DNA of 64,000 nt. Source: Escherichia coli. Its GTDB lineage: Bacteria > Pseudomonadota > Gammaproteobacteria > Enterobacterales > Enterobacteriaceae. The notes beneath the pieces were generated by a model. It saw nothing but the letters and a program-made list of their open reading frames with translations, searched no databases and was not told where the DNA came from. Shown here one piece after another: positions 6,116-52,571 of the stretch (position 1 is its first letter; each line of letters starts with the position of its first letter). A program made the position numbers and the translations under genes. The stretch lies in NCBI RefSeq assembly GCF_017348835.2, contig NZ_CP071375.1; one strand, 5' to 3'.

Positions 6116-6124
6116 CCTGCATGT

Positions 6125-6400
6125 TCATGCCGGATGCGGCGTGAACGCCTTATCCGGCCTTCGAATGGAACGAGAATCTGTAGGCCTGATAAGCGTAGCG
6201 CATCAGGCATTTGTCACCATTGCCGGATGCGGCGTGAACGCCTTATCCGGCCTACAAGTGGCGCAAGAATTTGTAGGCCTGATAAGCGTAGCGCATCAGG
6301 CATTTGTCACCATTGCCGGATGCGGCGTGAACGCCTTATCCGGCCTACGAGTGGCACGAGAATTTGTAGGCCTGATAAGCGTAGCGCATCAGGCAGTCTG
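6125..6400. repeat. BIME/REP array, about three units of GCCGGATGCGGCGTGAACGCCTTATCCGGCCTAC alternating with GTAGGCCTGATAAGCGTAGCGCATCAGGC
   Basis: Directly visible near-identical tandem palindromic units; produces spurious ORFs with repeated MRRERLIRP peptides. Confidence 0.9.
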
Positions 6401-12266: not shown

Positions 12267-13230
12267 ACTGAAAAAACGCCATGAATTCTGGCTGGCATTA
12301 CTGATTGTGGTGCTGTTTGTTGGCCTTGCCTGGCGCAGCGACGAGTTTCTGACATTCGGTAATTTGTACGATCTCGCCAATAACTATGCCATGTTGACTA
12401 TTCTCGCCTGTGGTTTGTTTGTGGTGTTGATTTCCGGTGGAATTGATATTTCGTTTCCAGCTATGACCATCATTGCGCAATACGGCATGGTGCTGTTGCT
12501 GCAAAAAATTGGTGGCAACTTCGCTGTCGCGTTTGCACTGGCGGGCTGCATCGGCATTTTACTTGGCTTAATTAACGCCTTACTGGTTAATCGCCTACGG
12601 GTGCCTTCTATCATCATCACTATCTCGACGCTGAATATTTTCTATGGCCTGCTGTTATGGTTGAGTAAAGGTGTGTGGCTGTACGACTTTCCGCCGTGGT
12701 TTGAGCAGGGGGTTATGTTGTTCAAGTACACCGATGCTGATGGCTATGACTATGGCCTTGGTCTGCCGCTGATCGCCATGATTACGGTGGTGCTGCTAAC
12801 AGCGTTTATCATGAATTTCACCAGTGTAGGGCGCAAAATTTATGCCCTTGGCGGGAACCGCGAATCAGCCAGTCGCATCGGCTTTAGCGTGCTGAAACTG
12901 CAACTTTTCGTCTATGGCTATATGGGATTGATGTCTGGCGCTGCGGGTGTAGTGCAGTCGTGGACGGTGATGACTGTCGCCCCCGATTCTCTTCTGGGTT
13001 ATGAGCTGACAGTACTGGCTGCGGTGGTGCTTGGCGGCACTAGTTTGCTCGGCGGGCACGGCACGTTAACCGGTACTTTGCTCGGCGTGGTGTTGTTGGC
13101 AGTGATGCAAAACGGGCTAAATTTATTGGGAGTCTCGTCTTACTGGCAAACATTGATCACCGGCATCATCATCGTTGCCAGCATTAGTGCCACGGCGTGG
13201 AGTCAGCATCAGAACCGGAGTCTGCTATGA
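12259..13230 (+). CDS. ABC transporter permease, RbsC-like (323 aa)
   Basis: Multi-TM hydrophobic ORF overlapping the ATPase stop by 8 bp. Confidence 0.8.
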   Translation: MAELKKRHEFWLALLIVVLFVGLAWRSDEFLTFGNLYDLANNYAMLTILACGLFVVLISGGIDISFPAMTIIAQYGMVLLLQKIGGNFAVAFALAGCIGILLGLINALLVNRLRVPSIIITISTLNIFYGLLLWLSKGVWLYDFPPWFEQGVMLFKYTDADGYDYGLGLPLIAMITVVLLTAFIMNFTSVGRKIYALGGNRESASRIGFSVLKLQLFVYGYMGLMSGAAGVVQSWTVMTVAPDSLLGYELTVLAAVVLGGTSLLGGHGTLTGTLLGVVLLAVMQNGLNLLGVSSYWQTLITGIIIVASISATAWSQHQNRSLL

Positions 13231-14183
13231 AAAAATCGTGGTGTAATAACGTTGAGTTTTACTTGATCGGCCTGCTGGTGCTAACTGTTGCCGCGTTCAG
13301 CATTACTATGCCGGAGATTTTCTGGTCGATAAGTAATTTCCAGTCCGTCGCTTCGCAAATGCCCGTGCTGGGCATTCTGGCGTTGGCTATGGCGGTGACC
13401 ATGCTTTGCGGTGGCATTAACTTGTCAATTATAGCCACTGCTAACGCCTGTTCACTGGTGATGGCGTGGGTGGCGACTCAGTATCCACCGGGTATTGCTA
13501 CGGTTGTCGCTACGTTACTGGCGGGCGCTGGCGCGGCGGTGATAATCGGTTTATGTAACGGCGTATTGATTGCTGGTATTCGAGTGTCGCCAATTCTTGC
13601 AACGCTTGGGATGATGACGTTGCTCAAAGGGATAAATATTCTGGTGACAGGTGGTAGCGCCATTGCCAATTATCCCTCATGGGTGCTGTGGTTGAATCAT
13701 GCGCAATGGTTCGGTATTCCGCTACCGATGTGGTTGTTTGCCGCAGTGGCACTGGGGCTGTGGATATTGCTGGAAAAAACGCCGCTCGGTAAAGCCATTT
13801 ACCTGATTGGGTCTAACGAACGAGCAACACTTTACTCCGGCATTAACACTCGTCGGGTGCTGATTTGGGTTTATGTCATTTCCGCCTTGCTTTGTGCGGT
13901 AGCGGCATTTTTGATGATGTCGAAACTCAACTCGGCTAAGGCCTCTTATGGCGAATCGTACTTGCTGGTGTCAATCCTCGCGGCAGTACTCGGCGGGGTT
14001 AATCCGGACGGCGGCAGCGGGCGGATAATTGGTATGGTGCTGGCGCTGTTTCTTCTGCAAATTATTGAAAGCGGCTTCAATATTCTCGGTATAAGCCCCT
14101 ACCTGACGATGGCCTTATGGGGAACGTTGCTGCTCTGTTTCATTCAGGCTCGCGGCATGTTGGGGCTGGATCGGGTGGTTTAA
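13227..14183 (+). CDS. ABC transporter permease, second subunit (about 318 aa)
   Basis: Multi-TM ORF; the MKKSW start forms an ATGA overlap with the preceding permease stop. Confidence 0.8.
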   Translation: MKKSWCNNVEFYLIGLLVLTVAAFSITMPEIFWSISNFQSVASQMPVLGILALAMAVTMLCGGINLSIIATANACSLVMAWVATQYPPGIATVVATLLAGAGAAVIIGLCNGVLIAGIRVSPILATLGMMTLLKGINILVTGGSAIANYPSWVLWLNHAQWFGIPLPMWLFAAVALGLWILLEKTPLGKAIYLIGSNERATLYSGINTRRVLIWVYVISALLCAVAAFLMMSKLNSAKASYGESYLLVSILAAVLGGVNPDGGSGRIIGMVLALFLLQIIESGFNILGISPYLTMALWGTLLLCFIQARGMLGLDRVV

Positions 14184-14269: not shown

Positions 14270-15319
14270 ATGAAGATCAAAGCTGTTGGTGCATATTCCG
14301 CTAAACAACCACTTGAACCGATGGATATCACCCGGCGTGAACCGGGACCGAATGATGTCAAAATCGAAATCGCTTACTGTGGCGTCTGCCATTCCGATCT
14401 CCACCAGGTCCGTTCCGAGTGGGCGGGGACGGTTTACCCCTGCGTGCCGGGTCATGAAATTGTGGGGCGTGTGGTAGCCGTTGGTGATCAGGTAGAAAAA
14501 CATGCGCCGGGCGATCTGGTCGGTGTCGGCTGCATTGTCGACAGTTGTAAACATTGCGAAGAGTGTGAAGACGGGCTGGAAAACTACTGTGATCACATGA
14601 CCGGCACATATAACTCGCCGACGCCGGACGAACCGGGCCATACTCTGGGCGGCTACTCACAACAGATCGTCGTTCATGAGCGATATGTTCTGCGTATTCG
14701 TCACCCGCAAGAGCAGCTGGCGGCGGTGGCTCCTTTGTTGTGTGCAGGGATCACCACGTACTCGCCGCTACGTCACTGGCAGGCCGGGCCGGGTAAAAAA
14801 GTGGGCGTGGTCGGCATCGGCGGTCTGGGACATATGGGGATTAAGCTGGCCCACGCGATGGGGGCACATGTGGTGGCATTTACCACTTCTGAGGCAAAAC
14901 GCGAAGCGGCAAAAGCCCTGGGGGCCGATGAAGTTGTTAACTCACGCAATGCCGATGAGATGGCGGCTCATGTGAAGAGTTTCGATTTCATTTTGAATAC
15001 AGTAGCTGCGCCACATAATCTCGACGATTTTACCACCTTGCTGAAGCGTGATGGCACCATGACGCTGGTTGGTGTGCCTGCGACACCGCATAAATCGCCG
15101 GAAGTTTTCAACCTGATCATGAAACGCCGTGCGATAGCCGGTTCTATGATTGGCGGCATTCCAGAAACTCAGGAGATGCTCGATTTTTGCGCCGAACATG
15201 GCATCGTGGCTGATATAGAGATGATTCGGGCCGATCAAATTAATGAAGCCTATGAGCGAATGCTGCGCGGTGATGTGAAATATCGTTTTGTTATCGATAA
15301 TCGCACACTAACAGACTGA
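14270..15319 (+). CDS. yahK: Zn-dependent NADPH aldehyde reductase / alcohol dehydrogenase (349 aa)
   Basis: GHE motif (CVPGHEIVGRV), structural Zn Cys cluster (CKHCEECEDG), GxGxxG (GIGGLGHMG); 349 aa. Confidence 0.9.
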   Translation: MKIKAVGAYSAKQPLEPMDITRREPGPNDVKIEIAYCGVCHSDLHQVRSEWAGTVYPCVPGHEIVGRVVAVGDQVEKHAPGDLVGVGCIVDSCKHCEECEDGLENYCDHMTGTYNSPTPDEPGHTLGGYSQQIVVHERYVLRIRHPQEQLAAVAPLLCAGITTYSPLRHWQAGPGKKVGVVGIGGLGHMGIKLAHAMGAHVVAFTTSEAKREAAKALGADEVVNSRNADEMAAHVKSFDFILNTVAAPHNLDDFTTLLKRDGTMTLVGVPATPHKSPEVFNLIMKRRAIAGSMIGGIPETQEMLDFCAEHGIVADIEMIRADQINEAYERMLRGDVKYRFVIDNRTLTD

Positions 15320-15358
15320 AAAAATTAATAAATACGCTGTGGTTTAACATATTAACTT

Positions 15359-15392
15359 CGCTCTCCACTTAACTTTTTAGTTAAGGAGAGCG
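15359..15392 (+). terminator. stem-loop CGCTCTCCACTTAACT-TTTT-AGTTAAGGAGAGCG downstream of yahK
   Basis: Near-perfect 15-bp inverted repeat read directly, 40 nt after the yahK stop; not followed by a clean U-tract. Confidence 0.35.
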
Positions 15393-15561
15393 AAATAATA
15401 TCAAAGTAGCAGTAAAACCTATAACGTAAATTCAAATTGTTAAATTAACTCCCTCCAGTACACAATACTTCACACGTTAGTTATGAGCGATTTCTGATAG
15501 TGCCTGGTTTAATCAGAGCTTTATTATCTGCGACGTTTATTTTTATTTAAGAGAGATCGCG

Positions 15562-16377
15562 ATGATATCATTAAAAGCTCCGCACAATAATTTGATGCCA
15601 TATACGCAACAAAGCATACTTAATACGGTTAAAAACAATCAGTTACCAGAGGATATCAAAAGCTCCCTGGTTTCCTGTGTCGATATATTCAAGGTTTTGA
15701 TTAAACAATATTATGATTATCCTTATGATTGTCGTGATGATTTAGTCGATGACGACAAACTCATTCATCTCATGGCTGCCGTACGAGACTGTGAGTGGTC
15801 AGACGATAACGCACTCACTATAAATGTGCAGTTTAATGATTTCCCTGGATTTTATGACTGGATGGATTACCCTGATCACCCGGTTAAGTTTGTTTTTCGC
15901 ATACTTGAAAATCAAAAAGGGACAGTTTGGGTATATGACCAGGATGATGCGTTTCTTGATATTAAAGCAAACGTGCAGGCTGGACGCTTTACCGGGCTTA
16001 AGAAATTAGTGCAGTTTATCGATTCAGTGCGAACAGATTGCAAATGTATTCTTCTTGAACACCATATGCCTTTGCTGAGAATTTTCCCTAAAGGGAAAGA
16101 GTGTATGCATGTGGAAAAATGGCTTCGCGAAATGTCGTCTATTCCGGAGACAGACGCGCCCATTAAGCAGGCGCTTGCGCATGGATTATTATTACACTTA
16201 AAAAATATCTACCCTGTTTTTCCTGAATCACTGGTGATGTTATTGCTCTCTGTTCTGGACGTAAAAACATACAGAGATGACGCACGATTAAATGAATGGA
16301 TATCTAATAGAGTGCAGGAATTAGGTGACAGATATTATCCTGTAAATAAGCACGTTAAAATCCGCTACACTCTTTAG
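15562..16377 (+). CDS. yahL: hypothetical protein (271 aa)
   Basis: 271 aa ORF in the expected position between yahK and yahM. Confidence 0.7.
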   Translation: MISLKAPHNNLMPYTQQSILNTVKNNQLPEDIKSSLVSCVDIFKVLIKQYYDYPYDCRDDLVDDDKLIHLMAAVRDCEWSDDNALTINVQFNDFPGFYDWMDYPDHPVKFVFRILENQKGTVWVYDQDDAFLDIKANVQAGRFTGLKKLVQFIDSVRTDCKCILLEHHMPLLRIFPKGKECMHVEKWLREMSSIPETDAPIKQALAHGLLLHLKNIYPVFPESLVMLLLSVLDVKTYRDDARLNEWISNRVQELGDRYYPVNKHVKIRYTL

Positions 16378-25698: not shown

Positions 25699-25704
25699 GG
25701 TAAT

Positions 25705-26062
25705 GTCGGATGCGTCGCGTGGCGCATCCGACACCATGCGCCGATGCCTGATGCGACGCTGACGCGTCTTATCATGCCTACAGGTCTGAACCGTAGGTCG
25801 GATAAGGCGTTCGCGCCGCATCCGACACCGTGTGCAGATGCCTGATGCGACGCTGACGCGTCTTATCATGCCTACAGGCCTGAACCGTAGGTCGGATAAG
25901 GCGCTCGCGCCGCATCCGACACCGTGCGCAGATGCCTGATACGACGCAGGCGCGTCTTATCATGCCTACAGGCCTGAACCGCAGGTCGGATAAGGCGTTC
26001 GCGCCGCATCCGACACCATGCGCCGATGCCTGATGCGACGCTGGCGCGTCTTATCATGCCTG
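25705..26062. repeat. BIME/REP array (about four units) between prpE and codB
   Basis: Repeated CCGATGCCTGATGCGACGCTGACGCGTCTTATCATGCCTACAGG...GTAGGTCGGATAAGGCG units; generates nested spurious ORFs on the minus strand. Confidence 0.9.
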
Positions 26063-28779: not shown

Positions 28780-28870
28780 AGTTTATGCCGGATGCGGCGT
28801 GAACGCCTTATCCGGCCTACGTAGAGCACTGAACTCGTAGGCCTGATAAGCGTAGCGCATCAGGCAATTG
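28780..28870. repeat. REP pair between codA and cynR
   Basis: GCCGGATGCGGCGTGAACGCCTTATCCGGCCTAC ... GTAGGCCTGATAAGCGTAGCGCATCAGGC. Confidence 0.85.
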
Positions 28871-31081: not shown

Positions 31082-32236
31082 ATGCTGCTGGTTCTGGTGC
31101 TGATTGGTCTTAATATGCGACCACTGCTCACCTCCGTCGGGCCACTGCTACCGCAATTGCGCCAGGCAAGCGGAATGAGCTTTAGCGTGGCTGCCCTGTT
31201 GACCGCTCTTCCGGTGGTCACCATGGGCGGGCTGGCGCTGGCCGGAAGCTGGCTTCATCAGCATGTCAGCGAACGTCGCAGCGTCGCCATCAGTTTGTTG
31301 CTGATTGCCGTCGGTGCATTGATGCGTGAGCTTTACCCCCAAAGTGCGCTGCTGCTTAGCAGCGCACTGCTTGGTGGGGTGGGGATCGGCATCATTCAGG
31401 CGGTGATGCCTTCGGTGATTAAACGGCGGTTTCAGCAGCGCACGCCACTGGTGATGGGGCTGTGGTCCGCGGCTCTGATGGGCGGCGGTGGACTTGGCGC
31501 CGCCCTGACGCCCTGGTTAGTTCAACATAGCGAAACCTGGTATCAAACACTCGCCTGGTGGGCGCTGCCTGCCGTTGTTGCGCTCTTTGCCTGGTGGTGG
31601 CAAAGCGCCCGCGAGGTCGCCTCTTCCCACAAGACAACAACCACTCCGGTTCGCGTGGTATTTACTCCCCGCGCGTGGACGCTGGGTGTTTACTTCGGTC
31701 TGATTAACGGTGGTTACGCCAGCCTGATTGCCTGGTTACCCGCCTTCTATATTGAGATTGGTGCCAGCGCGCAGTACAGCGGTTCCTTGCTGGCATTGAT
31801 GACGCTTGGGCAAGCCGCAGGAGCTTTGCTGATGCCTGCTATGGCTCGCCATCAGGATCGGCGCAAACTGTTAATGCTGGCGCTGGTGTTACAACTGGTG
31901 AGGTTCTGCGGCTTTATCTGGCTGCCGCTGCAATTGCCGGTATTGTGGGCGATGGTGTGTGGGTTAGGTCTGGGTGGCGCGTTTCCGCTCTGTTTGCTGC
32001 TGGCGCTCGATCACTCTGCGCAACCAGCTATTGCTGGCAAGCTGGTGGCGTTTATGCAGGGGATCGGTTTTATCATCGCCGGGCTTGCCCCGTGGTTTTC
32101 TGGTGTGCTGCGTAGTATCAGCGGCAATTACCTGATGGACTGGGCATTTCATACGCTGTGCGTCGTTGGGCTGATGATCATAACCCTGCGCTTTGCACCA
32201 GCACGTTTTCCGCAGCTGTGGGTCAAAGAGGCATGA
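31082..32236 (+). CDS. cynX: MFS cyanate transporter (384 aa)
   Basis: ORF 31055..32236; start MLLVLVLIGLNMRPLL at 31082. Confidence 0.88.
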   Translation: MLLVLVLIGLNMRPLLTSVGPLLPQLRQASGMSFSVAALLTALPVVTMGGLALAGSWLHQHVSERRSVAISLLLIAVGALMRELYPQSALLLSSALLGGVGIGIIQAVMPSVIKRRFQQRTPLVMGLWSAALMGGGGLGAALTPWLVQHSETWYQTLAWWALPAVVALFAWWWQSAREVASSHKTTTTPVRVVFTPRAWTLGVYFGLINGGYASLIAWLPAFYIEIGASAQYSGSLLALMTLGQAAGALLMPAMARHQDRRKLLMLALVLQLVRFCGFIWLPLQLPVLWAMVCGLGLGGAFPLCLLLALDHSAQPAIAGKLVAFMQGIGFIIAGLAPWFSGVLRSISGNYLMDWAFHTLCVVGLMIITLRFAPARFPQLWVKEA

Positions 32237-47829: not shown

Positions 47830-48085
<256 letters not shown>

Positions 48086-50034: not shown

Positions 50035-50145
50035 AGTCGTGCGCAGATGCCTGATGCGACGCTTACGCGTCTTATCATGCCTACGGCTCATGGGCGAAAT
50101 GTAGGCCGGATAAGGCGTTCACGCCGCATCCGGCAGTTGTGCACT
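50035..50145. repeat. REP pair between yaiL and frmB
   Basis: GCCTGATGCGACGCTTACGCGTCTTATCATGCCTAC ... GTAGGCCGGATAAGGCGTTCACGCCGCATCCGGCA. Confidence 0.85.
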
Positions 50146-52520: not shown

Positions 52521-52571
52521 TATACTATAGGGGGGTATGCTATATGTCAATGCATACCCCCCTATAGTATA
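52521..52571. promoter_or_regulatory. 51-bp palindrome (20-bp perfect arms TATACTATAGGGGGGTATGC / GCATACCCCCCTATAGTATA) upstream of frmR; probable FrmR operator
   Basis: Read directly; 26 bp upstream of the frmR start; G6/C6 tracts typical of CsoR/RcnR-family operators. Confidence 0.75.

Follow-up and report, generated by a model that had tools for sequence, protein, structure and literature searches.

A stem-loop without a U-tract marks the mapped 3' end of the yahK mRNA in Escherichia coli

The hairpin at positions 15359-15392 on the plus strand of the window, by which we mean the whole 64,000-nt stretch of E. coli DNA analyzed here, marks a 3' end of the yahK mRNA that has been mapped by experiment in E. 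coli. It is a real, unannotated and ordinary 3' stem-loop lacking a U-tract, and it represents no new type of element. We think it probable that it is the 3'-terminal protective stem-loop of a Rho-terminated yahK transcript, of the kind that Dar and Sorek reported in 2018.

The yahK coding sequence, for an NADPH-dependent aldehyde reductase, occupies 14270-15319 on the plus strand, as shown by the list of open reading frames and by the annotation that RefSeq gives to E. coli loci of the same or nearly the same sequence. Its left flank is variable: the strain of the window and strain PE164 carry sugar ABC-transporter permease and ATPase genes there (13197-14183 and upstream), and in K-12 and ST131 the position upstream of yahK is taken by yahI-yahJ. 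On the other side, an A/T-rich 3' UTR spacer of 39 nt (15320-15358) runs from the stop codon to the hairpin, which begins 40 nt past the stop, in agreement with the preliminary description. The next gene is yahL (15562-16377, plus strand). It is co-directional with yahK and A/T-rich, and its start lies 170 nt from the hairpin. The G+C content is 53.5% in yahK, 32% in the spacer that holds the hairpin, and 39% in yahL. A consensus scan finds no promoter-like site near the hairpin, the 39-nt spacer included, and RefSeq places no annotation beneath the hairpin in the matched E. coli genomes.

The core stem-loop is read directly from the sequence as the arms CGCTCTCCACTTAACT and AGTTAAGGAGAGCG around TTTT, exactly as the preliminary description quoted it. 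That description counted fifteen basepairs; the pairing holds, but the stem is not an uninterrupted run of fifteen. Eight basepairs (15359-15366 with 15385-15392) are followed by a 2-nt bulge (A15367 and C15368) and then by six more (15369-15374 with 15379-15384), so that a 14-bp core stem with a 5' arm at 15359-15374 and a 3' arm at 15379-15392 closes a 4-nt UUUU loop at 15375-15378. Two added A-U pairs (15357-15358 with 15393-15394) bring the stem to 16 bp, and six of the pairs in this 14-16 bp stem are G-C. Beyond them, a weak outer A-U helix, ATATTA/TAATAT (15349-15354 with 15396-15401), completes an extended imperfect palindrome at 15349-15401.

The free-energy calculation proposed as a check bears out the description of the hairpin as strong. 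The plus-strand RNA folds with a free energy of -17.5 kcal/mol (z = -5.84), a value equaled by none of 200 dinucleotide shuffles, and the minus-strand RNA folds with -17.1 kcal/mol (z = -6.12). The 16-bp stem reaches -20.4 kcal/mol, and the outer helix lowers the value to -22.9 kcal/mol in a 66-nt context; across the folds from -17.5 to -22.9 kcal/mol, z stays at about -6 to -7. In a sliding fold of 38 nt over the whole 64-kb window, the hairpin ranks about 21st among distinct sites, and the folds ranked higher are mostly GC-rich REP-type hairpins. Clusters of REP-type palindromes (GCCGGATGCGGCGTGAACGCCTTATCCGGCC) lie at 6123-6346 (three tandem copies), 28781-28818, 47867-48032 and 50105-50142. 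Another strong hairpin, ATAGGGGGGTATGC-(loop)-GCATACCCCCCTA at 52527-52564, has a 13-bp stem, an 11-nt loop and a free energy of -25.3 kcal/mol, and perfect stems of 12-15 bp are also found at 25699-25736 and 31339-31376. A scan of 14800-16000 against Rfam 15, with E-values up to 10, returns only chance-level matches to miRNA and sRNA families; the best models overlapping the hairpin score 19-25 bits against gathering scores of 49-80, below the family threshold.

The evidence that carries the main finding is the set of RNA 3' ends published for K-12, a strain other than that of the window and the source of all the expression evidence used here. In K-12 MG1655 the core hairpin lies at 343973-344006 of NC_000913.3, and subtracting 328,614 from a K-12 coordinate gives the window coordinate. 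The two sequences are identical from the hairpin through the next 30 nt, and the alignment has no indels there. In the Term-seq data of Adams et al. 2021 (eLife, PMC7815308), a plus-strand end is called at 344013 in LB at OD 2.0, with a mean of 1,132 reads, and another at 344011 in M63 glucose, with 745 reads; no 3' end is called at the hairpin in LB at OD 0.4. Their table prints the sequences around the two ends, and these are the yahK hairpin letter for letter. Both ends carry the label "orphan" and are placed "upstream of yahL", and the reason for the "orphan" label is that they lie 78-80 nt past the yahK stop, over the 50-nt limit that these authors set for a "primary" end. The independent TRS study (Nat Commun 2023, PMC10687069) finds RNA ends clustered between 344007 and 344015, with 344012 as the peak, and assigns them to yahK as its "Primary" terminus. 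The supplementary lists of TERMITe do not contain the site. Transferred to the window, the 3' ends at 344011-344013 become 15397-15399, which lies within the weak outer A-U helix, 5-7 nt downstream of the last G-C pair. Mapping of 3' ends was the check by which the preliminary description would have its hairpin stand or fall, and in K-12 the ends from two studies map 5-7 nt after the stem.

Many 3'-UTR hairpins are ligands of ProQ, and the end described here, which is discrete and stable, is seen in stationary phase and in minimal medium but not in exponential LB. These two points would fit a function beyond passive protection, with the hairpin as the 3' end of a regulatory RNA derived from the yahK 3' UTR, or as a site for an RNA-binding protein of the ProQ-ligand type. 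We give this reading very little probability. The condition dependence is most simply a matter of the expression level of yahK, the hairpin lacks the U-tail favored by Hfq and by the FinO domain of ProQ, it matches no Rfam family, and yahK is absent from the supplementary tables of an sRNA prediction based on RIL-seq and of Hfq CLASH. Two small open reading frames were also considered and rejected. On the plus strand, the 3' arm contains TAAGGAG, which strongly resembles a Shine-Dalgarno sequence, yet no start codon stands at a usable spacing from it, and the sole possible frame is ATA plus four codons. On the minus strand, a 19-codon frame starting from the ATG at 15351-15349 is broken in ST131, where the run behind the yahK stop has one A more and shifts the frame. 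The yahK literature is almost all enzymology or metabolic engineering, and the hairpin sequence itself does not appear in the literature searched.

A 3' end a few nucleotides past a stable stem could also be produced by direct release of RNA polymerase. According to this alternative, the hairpin is a weak or non-canonical intrinsic terminator, which frees a fraction of the polymerases 5-7 nt past the stem, perhaps with help from NusA/NusG or from its A/U-rich tail AAAUAAUAU, and Rho would be no more than a back-up. The hairpin resembles intrinsic terminators in several ways: it has a GC-based stem and a 4-nt loop of fitting dimensions, it begins about 40 nt downstream of a stop codon, and RNA ends are found a short way past the stem. 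The spacing of the mapped ends would suit direct release, and the RNA-DNA hybrid behind the stem would hold A-U/A-T pairs alone. Dar and Sorek explicitly discuss terminators that are poor in uridine and of a mixed or transitional kind. The likeness ends at the tail, AAAUAAUA, which has A beside the stem and no U-tract. The three positions adjacent to the stem are all A, only two of the first eight are U, and the T-tail score is 0.29. A d'Aubenton-Carafa-type discriminant, calculated with modern energy parameters, is -62 as compared to +20 for a canonical control, and it is strongly negative on both strands. A scan for consensus terminators finds no terminator-like site on either strand between 14200 and 16600, and a bicyclomycin-sensitive region follows immediately downstream. 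The preliminary description saw no clear U-tract after the hairpin and doubted that it is an intrinsic terminator. The first point is confirmed by a tail, AAATAATA, with two T in eight and by the empty terminator scan, the second is supported by scan and discriminant alike, and we regard a weak terminator as unlikely, at about one chance in five.

For the reading that we prefer, the relevant background is that of Dar and Sorek 2018 (NAR), who find that Rho-dependent transcripts of E. coli end directly after stable stem-loops without U-rich tails, that these ends are made from diffuse termination sites by the trimming activity of PNPase and RNase II, and that rut sites lie just downstream of such stem-loops. 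The yahK hairpin is similar to the members of this class (a hypothesis of Peters et al. 2012) in several respects. It is a stable stem-loop of terminator size with a steady-state 3' end a few nucleotides downstream, it has neither a U-rich tail nor an upstream A-tract (upstream TATTAACTT, downstream AAATAATA), an enrichment of C over G and a bicyclomycin-sensitive region come just beyond it, and the gene is lowly expressed. It differs from the class in that the Rho signal at yahK is weak and possibly confounded, and in that the C-rich tract is not conserved in B2 strains.

The Rho signal comes from direct RNA-seq by Adams et al. 2021 (PMC7815308), performed in LB at OD 0.5, growth conditions other than those of the 3'-end data. 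They report a Rho-termination region with its best position at 344049, which is 15435 in the window, 43 nt past the stem. The counts upstream and downstream are 32 and 24 without bicyclomycin and 83 and 225 with it, low read numbers from which a Rho score of 3.6 with p = 1.8e-5 is obtained. With bicyclomycin the downstream count exceeds the upstream count, and part of this signal may stem from initiation inside a derepressed yahL instead of read-through from yahK. Genomic SELEX (Shimada et al. 2017) places binding of RNA polymerase holoenzymes inside yahL. The site within 15562-16377 is bound strongly by the sigma-28, sigma-32 and sigma-E holoenzymes, with intensities up to 27. Rho dependence of the yahK-yahL region is supported, if weakly. 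The same tables of Adams et al. hold a further "orphan" Term-seq end at 345390 on the plus strand (about 16776 in the window), a short way before yahM, and, within yahM itself, a strong Rho-termination region (K-12 345585, about 16971), with a Rho score of 6.2 and p = 3e-33. The K-12 RefSeq record now includes xtpA (b4845), a small gene overlapping the start of yahM.

The composition downstream of the hairpin is that of a candidate Rho-loading region. Per 60 nt, the excess of C over G is +10 to +13, with its maximum of +13 in the untranslated C-rich, G-poor tract at 15416-15475 (plus strand), a candidate rut region that contains the C-rich, G-poor stretch CTCCCTCCAGTACACAATACTTCACAC at 15449-15475. 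The 60 nt at 15420-15479, with 14 C and 4 G, belong to the top 3.3% of all 60-nt windows in the 64 kb. An 11-nt indel, CCTCCAGTACA at 15452-15462, divides the B2-type strains from the rest; in B2 strains the 11-nt deletion takes most of the C-rich tract and the hairpin is kept. Hairpin and Rho region together separate yahK from yahL. The suggestion in the preliminary description that the hairpin is a stabilizing 3' structure is supported by the published K-12 3' ends, by the missing U-tract and by the Rho region downstream.

The mechanism we propose has RNA polymerase reading through the hairpin, as there is no U-tract to set off intrinsic release. The RNA being untranslated past the yahK stop, Rho would then load some 25-85 nt downstream, where the C-rich, G-poor tract lies, and would terminate at scattered positions, either in the spacer between yahK and yahL or within the A/T-rich region of yahL. 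The exonucleases PNPase and RNase II would trim the ragged tails in the 3'-to-5' direction until the GC-rich base of the stem halts them a few nucleotides short, leaving a defined and protected 3' end, ...GGAGAGCG-AAAUA(AU). Such an end may stabilize the yahK mRNA and limit read-through into yahL. We infer the exonuclease trimming and the stabilizing effect at yahK from the general model. We also read the hairpin as helping to insulate yahK from the A/T-rich yahL, a gene that, to judge from its composition, is presumably silenced by H-NS.

Natural variation shows which properties of the hairpin E. coli retains. The stretch 15200-15620 is matched, with annotated yahK and yahL, in 5,119 of 5,426 complete E. 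coli genomes, and the core stem-loop is conserved in about 5,090 of the 5,426, with one copy in each. There are three haplotypes, which differ in the 5' arm only (15359-15374). The first, CGCTCTCC-AC-TTAACT, has the 2-nt bulge and a free energy of -20.4 kcal/mol; it is found in about 3,950 genomes, among them those of the window, K-12 and O157. The second, CGCTCTCCTTAACT, is a perfect 16-bp palindrome with -25.8 kcal/mol, present in about 590 genomes (a number obtained by subtraction) such as those of ST131 and E12. The third, CGCTCCACTTAACT, has a 2x2 internal loop and -18.7 kcal/mol, and includes Nissle 1917 and ATCC 11775 among its 547 genomes. The lineage-specific forms of the arm are CTCTCCAC, CTCTCC and CTCCAC, in about 3,950, 590 and 547 complete genomes respectively, two of them within B2-type strains. 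Fold stability varies by up to 7 kcal/mol between haplotypes. All three keep a strong hairpin and the register of the DNA dyad changes, which favors an RNA hairpin over a protein operator. No compensatory base changes occur among the three haplotypes, and the comparative evidence is thus one of tolerance of the fold and not of covariation.

These variants weigh against the other option raised in the preliminary description, a protein-binding palindrome. The palindrome would then act as DNA, as the operator or binding site of a dimeric protein, for example for yahL or for downstream A/T-rich genes. It is intergenic, upstream of yahL, unique in the genome and well conserved, and in B2 strains it can take the form of a perfect inverted repeat of 16 + 16 bp with a 4-bp center. 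However, about 3,950 genomes have two extra bases in one arm and 547 have another 2-nt change, by which the register is shifted or broken; operators rarely tolerate register shifts, whereas an RNA stem takes them up as a bulge or internal loop. The palindrome lies 170 nt from the yahL start with no promoter-like site nearby, it is kept in B2 strains despite the absence of yahL, and RNA 3' ends map precisely to its edge. The binding data that we found near it in the yahK and yahL literature are the RNA polymerase SELEX peaks, and these are inside yahL only. As the natural variants alter the dyad register and yet keep the fold, the operator option is disfavored, and we consider it very unlikely.

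In B2-type strains (ST131, E12 and Nissle-like) yahL is wholly absent, and the yahK-yahL spacer is kept, including the hairpin. The homology break in these strains is at about 15555, just before the yahL start codon and 160 nt from the hairpin. In B2-type strains yahM is annotated as frameshifted. About 6% of the genomes lack the whole region, for example by a deletion associated with IS1, which indicates that the hairpin is dispensable. In strain VG888-46E9, an IS1B insertion with a deletion removes yahE-yahK together with the hairpin and ends 76 nt before yahL.

One could see in the palindrome a relic of mobile or repeated DNA, be it a REP/BIME-like element, the terminal inverted repeat of a miniature transposon, an integron attC-like site or a scar of the yahL insertion. 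The 32% G+C of the spacer is indeed nearer to the variably present yahL segment (39%) than to yahK (53.5%). Against such an origin, each of about 5,100 E. coli genomes has the palindrome once, the window holds no other copy even with 3 mismatches allowed, and the break between presence and absence of yahL, at about 15555, is 160 nt away. A mobile relic is already largely refuted by copy number, and we hold it to be extremely improbable. The strings ACTTAAC/GTTAAGT resemble the consensus of integron core sites. We rejected an attC-like site: the core-like strings are at the center of the palindrome and not at its ends, the element is far shorter than an attC, and it is a single copy. Phage records contain no true match, only chance matches of 22 nt in Campylobacter phages. 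Plasmid matches are confined to plasmids of about 230 kb from K-12 laboratory cultures, presumably of the F-prime type, and to megabase-sized records that look like mislabeled chromosomes.

The REP/BIME elements that stabilize 3' ends, as in the malEFG operon, are among the known systems closest to what we propose, as intergenic hairpins that block 3' exonucleases and set a stable mRNA end, which the yahK hairpin would do likewise. They differ in sequence and number: the yahK hairpin is unique, and the REP copies in the window have the consensus GCCGGATG...CCGGC.

Outside of E. coli, the hairpin motif is absent from all of the at least 80 loci with YahK homologs listed from other genera, and the sequence downstream of those genes is unrelated. 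The closest YahK homologs among the matches listed, at 85-90% identity, belong to Enterobacter sp., Franconibacter, Pseudescherichia and Salmonella bongori, none of them syntenic and each with a stable hairpin of its own near the stop; the contigs of the homologs with 90%, 86% and 86% identity are not syntenic and have different hairpins, and a match with 95% identity is a B2-type E. coli contig. Among the matches listed, which are either E. coli or members of other genera, the E. coli hairpin is found in E. coli only. Stable hairpins also follow the yahK homologs of Salmonella bongori, Pseudescherichia vulneris, Enterobacter sp. and several Pseudomonas species, each about 15-50 nt past the stop. 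Unlike the E. coli hairpin, with which they share no sequence homology, some of these are canonical or bidirectional terminators or are REP-like. The comparison suggests that a 3' hairpin may be needed after yahK while its sequence is free to vary.

A more far-reaching reading makes the hairpin a gate that works conditionally, set between yahK and a silenced segment of horizontal origin, yahL-xtpA-yahM. Its stability, with the spread of about 7 kcal/mol among haplotypes, or a bound RNA-binding protein, might tune the half-life of the yahK mRNA and the leakage into the downstream island. We regard this as a long shot; if it were true, the three haplotypes would be functionally distinct alleles.

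The finding has little importance beyond annotation. Within annotation, yahK, an aldehyde reductase much used in metabolic engineering, now has a definite transcript end and, with it, a 3' UTR some 80 nt long, and an "orphan" 3' end of a published Term-seq table is accounted for as the terminus of yahK. If the hairpin caps a Rho-terminated transcript, as we think probable, it would enrich the group of U-tract-less stem-loops at the ends of Rho-terminated mRNAs by a clear case that comes in three natural structural alleles. The hairpin also warns that the sequence alone does not suffice to annotate such hairpins as intrinsic terminators or as operators.
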